A stretch of DNA of 64,000 nt from Candidatus Rhabdochlamydia sp. (GTDB taxonomy: Bacteria; Chlamydiota; Chlamydiia; Chlamydiales; Rhabdochlamydiaceae): assembly GCA_051648645.1 (NCBI GenBank), contig JBOFFP010000003.1, positions 192,001-256,000 on the forward strand, written 5' to 3'. The notes under the pieces were generated by a model. That model did no database searches, was not told the origin of the DNA, and worked only from the letters and a program-made list of their open reading frames with translations. The translations under genes were made by a program, and so were the position numbers. Shown here one piece after another: positions 46,982 to 49,430 of the stretch. Each line of letters begins with the position of its first letter. Position 1 is the first letter of the stretch.

Positions 46982-46990
46982 TTAATTTTT

Positions 46991-47908
46991 TTATCCTTTA
47001 AGACTAGAAGAATTGCTCCTAAAAGGATCAAATTCTGCTATCTTATCAGCTTTTCTCTTAAGATCATCAGCTGTATTGCTTATTTGGTTTTGATTATCTT
47101 GTGCCATTTCTTTTTGGATAGTTTCCTTACTAGCTTTAGCTTTCTCTTGATCTGCTAAAGATTGACTTACAAGGTTAGCTCCTTGCCCTATTCCACTTAG
47201 CCCTTGAAATCTATCTGCTTTGGCCTCAATTAAGTTTTTCTTAACTTCATATTCCCTATTTTCTTTCTCAATAAGCTTCTCTGCTTTTTTTTCAGTTATT
47301 TTGTTCTGAGCATTTGCCTTTTCTGCCAATTGAGCCTCTGTCTGCTCTTCTGGTTTTGTTTGTTTACAAGACAATGATTCTTCCGCATCGTAGAAAATTT
47401 CTTCTTCTATTTCATCTAATCCAGATCTAACAGGATCGTCAAGGGCTTCTACTTTTATCGTAATATCAGAGCTTTCTAAAGATAAGTCTCCTTCCTTTAG
47501 TATGTTCTTATTGATATCTTCTAGATGACTCTCGCGTGCTTTCGTTACTTGAGCAAGTTCTGTTGCTTTTGTACATCCAGCTACACCTTGAGCAATTCCT
47601 GCTCCGGCAAAAACGGCCCCACCTGCTAATTGCAAAAGACCGGCTTTTGCAGTTTCATCAGCACTATTAAAACCAGCTTTTATGGCTGCACGGCCTAATT
47701 CACCTCTTACTAAGCTAAGTTTTTCATACACCCCTATAGTCGTACTAAAAAACATCCAGGTTATAACCGCAGCCTTAGCCTGCGTATTAGTAGAAGGATC
47801 ATTAAAGAGCTTCTCTATAAGATCTTCTACATGACTCTTAACAATCGGATCTTGCTTATTACTCTTAATGGTGGAATCTTGATTATTGTTGGAATTATCA
47901 ACGTTCAT
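46991..47908 (-). CDS. Family E paralog 2: putative minor translocator with FFAT-like motif
   Basis: AAIKAGFNSADETAKAGLLQLAGG aligns with 27207..27989; contains DEIEEEIFYDAEE. Confidence 0.6.
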   Translation of the reverse strand: MNVDNSNNNQDSTIKSNKQDPIVKSHVEDLIEKLFNDPSTNTQAKAAVITWMFFSTTIGVYEKLSLVRGELGRAAIKAGFNSADETAKAGLLQLAGGAVFAGAGIAQGVAGCTKATELAQVTKARESHLEDINKNILKEGDLSLESSDITIKVEALDDPVRSGLDEIEEEIFYDAEESLSCKQTKPEEQTEAQLAEKANAQNKITEKKAEKLIEKENREYEVKKNLIEAKADRFQGLSGIGQGANLVSQSLADQEKAKASKETIQKEMAQDNQNQISNTADDLKRKADKIAEFDPFRSNSSSLKG

Positions 47909-47909
47909 A

Positions 47910-48425
47910 TTATTCCCCTTGTTTTTTAATAATTTTTAAAGTTTTCATGTAAATGCTTATAATGGGTAGTATAAGCATTAAAGGCTTAGCCAAGAGAGGC
48001 TCTATCTGTTTATTGAAAACAAGTTTTGTAAGCTTCTGTTTTGCTAGGTTTAGCATTTTATCTAGCTTTTCTTTCTTTTTTTGAGTAATGCTGTTCTGCT
48101 CTCTTATTATATTAAGCTCCTTGAGGGAGGCACAGAGCAAACCTGCTAATTCTGAGTCAACCAGCTCATCTTGTTTGCACTTAATTATAAGGAGTTTCAT
48201 TTGTACAATTATTATAGGAAATTGAAGAAATATTGCTTGTAATTGGCTAAGAGAGAGTTCGTGTAGGAAAATCTTCGTAAACTCCTGCATGGTTTGTTCT
48301 GAGATTTGCTCATCAAGAAGATCTTCTAGAGATACTTTTTCAAGCATTTGGTCTGTTTGCTTTATAAATTCTGGACTAACCCGAATTTTTGACCTGTGAT
48401 TAGGCTGAGCTGGCAATGCTGTCAT
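47910..48425 (-). CDS. Hypothetical helical protein, coupled to the downstream family E gene
   Basis: Stop codon 1 bp before the next ATG. Confidence 0.65.
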   Translation of the reverse strand: MTALPAQPNHRSKIRVSPEFIKQTDQMLEKVSLEDLLDEQISEQTMQEFTKIFLHELSLSQLQAIFLQFPIIIVQMKLLIIKCKQDELVDSELAGLLCASLKELNIIREQNSITQKKKEKLDKMLNLAKQKLTKLVFNKQIEPLLAKPLMLILPIISIYMKTLKIIKKQGE

Positions 48426-48686
48426 AAGACGCCCTTGTTTTTAATTAACTTTTATCTATTTTCAGAACCACCTTTATATTAACTGTTGACTTATTCTTGT
48501 TTATTTATATTAACATGATTAAATCATAATTAACAATTTATATACTCTTAAATACTTATATAATAAAACTGAATTGTCTAGAGAAATTACTTGCGGATTT
48601 ATTTTTTTTCTTTTGCTTTATCGAGAAGAAGATTTAGACGATATGATCTTACAGATGTAAGATTCCATCTTTAGATAAAAGAAAAT

Positions 48687-48838
48687 AAAAAAAACCCAGC
48701 CCCCACGCTGATAATGAGGACTGGGAGCAGAATTTGATCCTTTTAGGAGCAATTCTTCAAGCCTTAAAGGATAAAACACTAACTATCCTACCAAGGAGTC
48801 AACTTGATAGCATAAAGATAATATATGCATATTTTCTT
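48687..48838 (-). ncRNA. Candidate sRNA antisense to the 3' end of 46991..47908
   Basis: TTGATT-N17-TAAAGT promoter (48873-48845), 5' hairpin, 51-nt complementary segment (48776-48726), GC terminator plus T8. Confidence 0.65.
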
Positions 48839-49430
48839 AAATTAACTTTAACACCACAACCAAACAAAATCAACATTAAATTTTTCAATTAGTATTATTT
48901 TTGTAAATAACAATGTAATGTAATTCGTTTTATTTATAAAAATAGATGGAATTAGATAATTAATAAAAATTAGCGCATAGAGCACTCAGTGTGCTCTGTG
49001 CTTTAAAAAACACGTAATGCTGCATGGAAAAGAAGCAGAGCGAAAAGAAGAAAAAAAACACTGATTACTCTTTTACAAGAGAAAAAAGGTGTTAACTTCT
49101 TGAAGTCAAAAATAGTGATGCCCCAGCATAGAAAAATGGAAGACACGAACAATCTAAGAAAAAGAGTACAAGCCATCCTTATAGGGACAAGTTGAAAGCC
49201 GAGAATCCATGATTCTAAATCCAATTTATCCTCTCATTGTTTGATATGGCAGATAAGTTCATTTTGCATAGCATTAGAAAGGCTGAAGACATCGCGAGTG
49301 AGCCCTATGCAGCTCGCAGAAACGGTGAAAAAAGAAAATCTACGAGTTCATTGTGTCCAAAAAAAAGCGGCAATATCACTCCTAAATAATCCTTCAATTC
49401 GTATACTGGCTAGTCCAGTAAGAGGTAAAA

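Follow-up and report, generated by a model that had tools for sequence, protein, structure and literature searches.

A candidate antisense small RNA gene carrying an inverted copy of the 3′ end of a translocator-like gene in Candidatus Rhabdochlamydia

Introduction

Antisense RNAs that act at the 3′ end of their target messenger RNA (mRNA) are exemplified by the GadY-gadX pair of Escherichia coli and by RatA-txpA and related type I toxin-antitoxin pairs of Bacillus subtilis, in which the outcome is mediated by RNase III. Another base-pairing small RNA (sRNA), MicF, forms an imperfect duplex with the 5′ region of its target and depends on Hfq; according to an older suggestion, micF arose by duplication of its target. 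What is held about the origins of bacterial sRNAs is for the most part deduced from ancient and much degraded cases. Inverted repeats that extend over a coding-sequence end also occur in invertible DNA, such as the Hin, Gin and Cin segments and the R64 shufflon. To our knowledge, Chlamydia has no Hfq, few base-pairing sRNAs have been characterised in chlamydiae, and none is known in their environmental or arthropod-associated lineages; a full-text literature search found nothing on small RNAs of Rhabdochlamydia. The locus described here lies in a window of 64,000 nucleotides (nt) from the genome of Candidatus Rhabdochlamydia sp. (assembly GCA_051648645.1, contig JBOFFP010000003.1, positions 192,001 to 256,000; G000:C3:192001-256000 in the genome set used here), a genome of 1.67 Mb in 12 contigs with 35.5% G+C and 93% completeness. 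On the minus strand of this window, a candidate sRNA of ~152 nt (48687..48838) carries 51 nt complementary to the 3′ end of a gene for a protein of 305 amino acids (305 aa; 46991..47908, same strand). A lineage-specific antisense sRNA directed against the 3′ end of the operon mRNA is the best supported, if unproven, reading of this locus, and we give it a probability of roughly one half.

Like GadY and RatA, the candidate would form a long near-perfect duplex at the 3′ end of an mRNA, by its terminator, in a genome that encodes RNase III. GadY and RatA, however, are cis-encoded and overlap their targets on the opposite strand, whereas the candidate is a separate copy 1.7 kb away; it does not lie opposite its target at the same locus (the two sites are 1686 nt apart) and falls outside the class of cis-encoded antisense RNAs. 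Type I toxin-antitoxin pairs with a 3′ overlap fit no better; the target of a RatA-type RNA is a small toxin, and the target here is a 305-aa acidic protein and no small hydrophobic toxin. MicF pairs imperfectly with a 5′ region and needs Hfq, in contrast to the near-perfect 3′-end pairing predicted here in a genome (93% complete) in which Hfq was not found. The likeness to shufflons is confined to inverted repeats that include a coding-sequence end: unlike Hin, Gin, Cin and R64, the locus comes with no recombinase among the window genes scanned, its arms encode the same peptide and the contigs hold one orientation. The literature on 3′-end antisense and type I toxin-antitoxin RNAs includes PMC3531473. 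For chlamydiae, two reports describe IhtA as a trans-encoded Chlamydia sRNA that represses hctA translation (PMC4355289, PMC3469542). IhtA resembles the candidate in being a stand-alone base-pairing sRNA; Hfq is likewise not found here, and the nearest protein-atlas cluster of the candidate's target lies in Chlamydiota. IhtA, which occurs throughout Chlamydia in conserved form, pairs over a short and imperfect stretch close to where the coding region begins, whereas the candidate offers 51 nt of near-perfect 3′-end pairing, occurs in one lineage and has no Rfam match.

The inverted copy and the candidate RNA unit

A repeat search of the window pairs 46989-47039 with 48726-48776 as inverted arms of 51 nt that match at 49 positions (96% complementary) and are separated by 1686 nt. 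The first arm, the presumed target site on the minus strand, comprises the 15 final codons of the 305-aa gene, its stop and 2 nt; it corresponds to the 3′ end of the mRNA and encodes AEFDPFRSNSSSLKG*, a C-terminal motif conserved across the gene family as FD(A/P)F..NSSSL(K/R)G. The second arm, read in the sense of operon transcription, is the antisense segment (48726..48776, minus strand), complementary to these 15 codons, stop and 2 nt. It is not an open reading frame (ORF) on the plus strand, where an in-frame TGA stands three codons before the copied codons. The arm pair has an E-value of 1.5e-17 in a BLAST search of the whole 1.67-Mb genome, and the arms otherwise match only a paralogous gene on contig C4, at its 3′ end (82% over 49 nt). 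Repeats of up to 120 nt at 90% identity or more are rare in this genome (18 pairs) and fall mostly at contig ends, in tandem copies or in transfer RNAs (tRNAs). The two mismatches, at 47003 and 47006, are both synonymous in the gene; in the RNA duplex, which has a calculated energy of -78.3 kcal/mol over the 51 nt, they become one G-U pair and one U-U mismatch. Duplex and cofold runs on longer sequences pair AU-rich RNA indiscriminately, and their figures are not used.

On the minus strand the antisense segment is directly abutted by an intrinsic terminator (48687..48725), in which CCCAGTCCTCA and TGGGGGCTGGG form a stem of 12 pairs, 7 of them G-C, around a 7-nt loop (48725..48695), followed by a run of eight T (48694-48687). 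On its other side stands a 5′ hairpin, CTATCAAG/CTTGGTAG (48810..48788, minus strand), one G-U pair of which can form on the minus strand only. Both ends of the ~152-nt unit are predicted, with a presumed start near 48838 and an end at the last base of the U-run (48687). The original prediction, made from the letters of the window, had described the inverted copy, the synonymous nature of both differences, the hairpin and the terminator with its T-run, and each of these is present. A strict genome-wide scan lists 36 terminator-like sites and ranks this one first in strength (-19.3 kcal/mol). Its stem contains two G-U pairs that turn into C-A mismatches if the plus strand is read, and the 152-nt RNA, read on the minus strand, folds with -46.4 kcal/mol (z -3.68, matched by none of 200 shuffles), against -29.9 kcal/mol on the plus strand (z -1.47); both the energies and the G-U pairs of the two hairpins favour the minus strand. 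In the minimum-energy fold, the region of the 5′ hairpin (48788..48810) pairs instead with the first bases of the antisense segment.

The terminator has no protein gene to serve. The nearest co-oriented ORF of at least 80 aa ends 1636 nt upstream of it, and a shorter hydrophobic ORF of 73 aa (49003..49224, minus strand) has a hairpin and T-run of its own behind it (48995-48972); the terminator can therefore stop only a transcript that starts between 48972 and 48776. Eight other strong terminator-like sites also have no end of a co-oriented ORF of at least 80 aa within ~300 nt upstream, and two of these belong to the transfer-messenger RNA (tmRNA) and to a tRNA. Downstream, the operon possesses its own promoter and 5′ region (48426..48625, minus strand), which is also conserved in other species and in the paralogous operon: ~200 nt are 73% identical to the C4 paralog, and similar matches occur in the genomes G003 and G007. 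This homology ends before the candidate unit, which is a separate unit because it lies outside and upstream of the conserved promoter region. A terminator that belongs to no protein gene and extended complementarity to an mRNA (49/51) are both properties by which a stand-alone base-pairing sRNA gene can be recognised. An Rfam search of 44000-52000 with a cut-off of E 10 left 48687-48880 without a match. For each of the 36 terminator-like sites the preceding 220 nt were compared with the genome, and only the stretch at this site had a long match elsewhere. At the second strongest terminator-like site of the genome (G000:C4:42897-42919, plus strand, locus L048; -18.9 kcal/mol), no Rfam match lies within 700 nt and the 8.6 kb upstream hold no co-oriented ORF of at least 80 aa; a further RNA gene, or else a small ORF, may end there. 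A contig from an RNA run ends at 48989. The RNA run X6 has no contig on 48398-48988, which speaks neither for nor against a transcript; contigs of a metatranscriptome do not reveal a small RNA, its strand or its ends.

Conservation in a related strain

A related strain, ~96% identical, is represented in contigs of the DNA runs X1, X2 and X4, which come from three studies; these contigs are collinear with the window over 46930-49400 and keep the same order. The feature is not an assembly artefact: the contigs are independent and derive from three runs. In X4, divergence is uneven along the locus. The 305-aa gene and its surroundings differ at 7 of 172 nt (46930-47101; 4.1%), 17 of 196 nt (47247-47442; 8.7%) and 25 of 533 nt (47544-48076; 4.7%), followed by 5 of 254 nt in 48105-48358 (2.0%), 3 of 449 nt in 48340-48788 (0.7%), 7 of 175 nt in 48819-48993 (4.0%) and 2 of 342 nt in 49059-49400 (0.6%). 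The stretch 48340-48788, which holds the terminator and the antisense segment, is significantly less diverged than the remainder (3/449 vs 63/1672; Fisher p = 2e-4), and the gene from which the copied codons come diverges by 4-9%.

The substitutions themselves bear on the history of the copy. Among the 40 of 148 differences that are listed for the related strain, none lies inside 48726-48776, and the target site carries 47003 A>G and 47006 A>T, the exact states of the G000 copy, together with 47008 A>C (S->A) and 47022 A>T (F->Y). The metagenome ortholog L045 shares the related strain's states at all four positions, but across the family the two altered residues are F and S. By parsimony over the related strain, L045 and the family, the G000 copy would represent the ancestral target sequence, the G000 target having gained two synonymous changes and its relatives two non-synonymous ones. 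The chance that both G000 changes would hit the ~12 synonymous target sites and not the 51 sites of the copy is 0.036 (a rough figure). The copy would thus not have drifted in G000, and it would predate the split from the ~4%-diverged strain. That it did not follow the G000 target argues against gene conversion.

The target operon and its proteins

The 305-aa gene (46991..47908, minus strand) shares an operon with a 171-aa upstream gene (47910..48425, minus strand). Directly past its stop stands a hairpin (46940..46982, minus strand; inverted repeat I24), the presumed operon terminator, 7 nt from the end of the pairing region and nearly identical in L045. The acidic 305-aa protein contains a single hydrophobic segment (residues 87-112) and a predicted long C-terminal helix, and its family is restricted to the genus: it occurs in 8/8 other genomes of the genus and in 0/32 genomes outside it. 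No Pfam match (E up to 0.1), relevant NCBIfam match or PDB sequence match was found. In a protein atlas, the protein lies near the VopD2, EspB, YopD and IpaC_SipC clusters and Chlamydiota hypotheticals, at 0.92-0.94 and with low recognition; the nearest cluster is mostly Chlamydiota. A structure model of low confidence (mean pLDDT, the predicted local distance difference test score, 45.7) has a helix at 188-291. Several traits of SctB-type translocators are therefore present, namely the hydrophobic segment, the helical C-terminal part of the low-confidence model and an SctV/FHIPEP gene in the genome; a match to the SctB (YopD/EspB/IpaC) family profiles is lacking in Pfam, NCBIfam and PDB alike. 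The earlier label translocator-like, suggested by the atlas proximity and not by these sequence searches, is best taken as a lead, not as membership.

The small acidic chaperone of the TPR type that would be expected beside such a translocator was not found there: the 171-aa neighbour is basic (isoelectric point 9.2) and has two hydrophobic stretches, and for that reason is not a typical acidic secretion chaperone. It has no Pfam match (E up to 0.1), no relevant NCBIfam match and no atlas match. The window does contain a CesT-type chaperone, and many of its genes have no family match. The 305-aa gene is hypervariable in its middle, where a block of 145 nt (47101-47247) can no longer be aligned even with the ~96%-identical strain. 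The L045 ortholog has 68% protein identity, and the gene ends and flanks look far more alike by eye. A 369-aa protein encoded at 56776-57885 resembles the 171-aa protein in its N-terminal part (26% over 160 aa, E 8e-8) and the product of 28523..29395 in its C-terminal part. The closest ortholog operon at species level, L016 (G004:C72:1-2933), is a pseudogene, interrupted by several in-frame stops and by a change of frame, and is without the promoter region conserved elsewhere. The sequence directly before this decayed operon is 67% similar to 49019-48902 of the window.

Proposed mechanism and origin

In the favoured reading, an antisense segment that arose when the 3′ end of the 305-aa gene, located 1.7 kb downstream and read in the same direction, was duplicated in inverted orientation would be carried by a minus-strand RNA gene of ~150 nt (48838..48687) consisting of a weak promoter with an extended -10 element, a 5′ hairpin, the segment itself and a strong terminator. 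Its transcript would pair with the operon mRNA in a near-perfect 51-bp duplex over the last 15 codons and stop, ending 7 nt from the terminal hairpin. The length of this complementarity may stand in for a chaperone, since no Hfq was found. RNase III would then be expected to cut the duplex, so that the protective 3′ hairpin is lost and the stability of the mRNA altered; decay appears the more likely outcome, and stabilisation, as reported for GadY-gadX, is possible.

The weak flank similarity may hold traces of this origin. One flank of the copy has a weak and roughly collinear similarity to the 3′ flank of the target, which reaches the end of the neighbouring 99-aa gene, and the other has no significant similarity (140 of 500 shuffles reach its score). 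If the first similarity is real, the copy may be a ~150-nt duplicate that has decayed except for its pairing core. A more detailed history, speculative and rather doubtful, would be the birth of an sRNA: an inverted duplicate of ~150 nt, comprising the last codons, the terminator and the end of the neighbouring gene, would have been remodelled into an RNA gene, its core kept by selection, its flanks turned into promoter and hairpins and a strong terminator joined to it, to yield, in an Hfq-less and chlamydia-like bacterium, a private silencer that matches a rapidly evolving, translocator-like secretion gene perfectly.

Counter-evidence and rival explanations

Several observations weigh against an antisense sRNA gene. 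The promoter-like site TTGATT-N17-TAAAGT (48845..48873, minus strand; hexamers 48873..48868 and 48850..48845, with TG one base upstream of the -10) exists as originally predicted, a few bases off the place then implied, and matches the consensus at just 8/12 positions; it is weak, and a promoter scan does not list it, because 8/12 falls under the 9-of-12 threshold. That scan lists an alternative, TTTACA-N16-AAAAAT (48907..48880), but promoter-like sites are not enriched in 46000-50000 (17 vs 14.7 in shuffles). Upstream of its tmRNA and tRNA genes, this genome has sites of the type TTGCCA-N17-TATTAT, nearer the consensus. The low divergence of 48340-48788 could be explained by the operon promoter and 5′ untranslated region (UTR) that it includes or by recent recombination, and 49059-49400 is equally conserved; the conservation is therefore suggestive and unspecific. 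The target has drifted by two substitutions in G000 without the copy following, and no co-variation is seen. The scaffold, which the original prediction proposed to look for with other inserts, was found by BLAST neither elsewhere in this genome nor in the 8 other genus genomes. In those 8 genomes no orphan inverted copy of the own gene end was found either, whether within 1.5 kb or genome-wide with two query types; the searches, which extended to metagenome contigs, returned matches of 18-30 nt only, and three that were inspected looked like chance. The 3 metagenome contigs hold no orphan inverted copy, with sequence upstream of the operon present in L046 only; none of them extends into the sRNA region of a close relative. 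The flank similarity is just marginally significant (score 40 vs 27 +/- 5.7 for random intergenic windows, 2.6% of which reach 40), and short gene-fragment remnants occur elsewhere in the genome, e.g., at C10:116835 and C10:119296.

The locus may instead be a neutral remnant: inverted duplication, or else rearrangement on a larger scale with subsequent deletion, may have left 51 nt of the gene end beside a pre-existing hairpin, either recently or in a slowly diverging region, without any function. Such an origin would account for the restriction of the copy to this lineage, the lack of co-variation in G000, the weak promoter and the company of other short repeats, and the conserved stretch that contains the copy also contains the operon promoter; it is a real possibility, although less likely than an antisense sRNA. 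It would make the abutment of the copy, in antisense orientation, to the strongest terminator a rare coincidence, given just 36 sites in 1.67 Mb, and would leave that terminator with nothing else to terminate. Moreover, the copy appears older than the ~4% split and yet has no inferred change in G000, and the flanks, if homologous, retain ~60% identity vs 96% in the core. The antisense sRNA gene as originally proposed is partly supported, by its orphan, very strong and strand-specific terminator, its strand-asymmetric folding, its position and its high conservation in the related strain; its promoter is weak.

Three further explanations concern the way in which the unit relates to its surroundings. 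Since the unit is co-directional with the operon and directly upstream of it, read-through from ~48838 could give an operon mRNA with a 5′ leader that pairs with its own 3′ end over 51 bp (-78.3 kcal/mol), a panhandle for RNase III, which is present, as in ribosomal RNA precursors; the 12-bp stem and U8 should nonetheless halt most transcripts, and beyond the terminator lies the operon's own conserved promoter region, so that a cis-acting leader or attenuator is improbable. It is less probable still that the 51-nt arms bound a 1.7-kb segment, containing the operon and its promoter, that is invertible or was inverted once, as the original prediction offered by way of alternative. The arms are inverted and encode an identical peptide, which leaves the gene intact in either orientation, but by the same token inversion would switch neither gene nor product. 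The contigs of 3/3 DNA runs have the reference order (those of X1 and X2 span both arms and that of X4 spans arm L), with the proviso that an orientation present in a minority would escape contigs; a Pfam scan of 64 window ORFs (58 with a cut-off of E 1e-5 and 6 with one of 0.1; smaller ORFs left out) detected no recombinase family, and two fixed internal differences argue against frequent exchange. An apparent joint of opposite strands in record 1 of X1 proved to be the normal gene end of a diverged family member beside a homologue of the 99-aa neighbour. Least credible of all is that the unit is a tiny mRNA, e.g., with a 15-codon ORF from an ATG near 48825 and the 51 nt as its 3′ UTR: the ATG-started frame does lie inside the unit, but its ribosome-binding site is not convincing, and a 53-aa minus-strand frame that runs through the terminator has no relatives in the protein collection.

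Significance

Should the candidate sRNA be expressed, its origin from its target would still be legible, which would allow selection on the pairing core to be measured against decaying flanks, and it would suggest that a hypervariable secretion gene of translocator-like type is controlled post-transcriptionally. Should it not be expressed, the locus would be an ordinary duplication scar.

Further observations in the window

At 740-6179, a gene pair (155-158 aa followed by 299-305 aa) is present in three tandem copies that are 75-82% identical, with a partial copy of 127 aa at 2348-2731; these pairs have no Pfam family and are unrelated in sequence to the 171-aa/305-aa pair. An ORF of 148 aa at 50361-50807 (minus strand) matches only positions 216-311 of the 329 of PF00144 (beta-lactamase) and probably represents a gene that has been truncated. 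At 21499-21661, two tRNA-Gly(GCC) genes stand side by side and are 100% identical over 72 nt.

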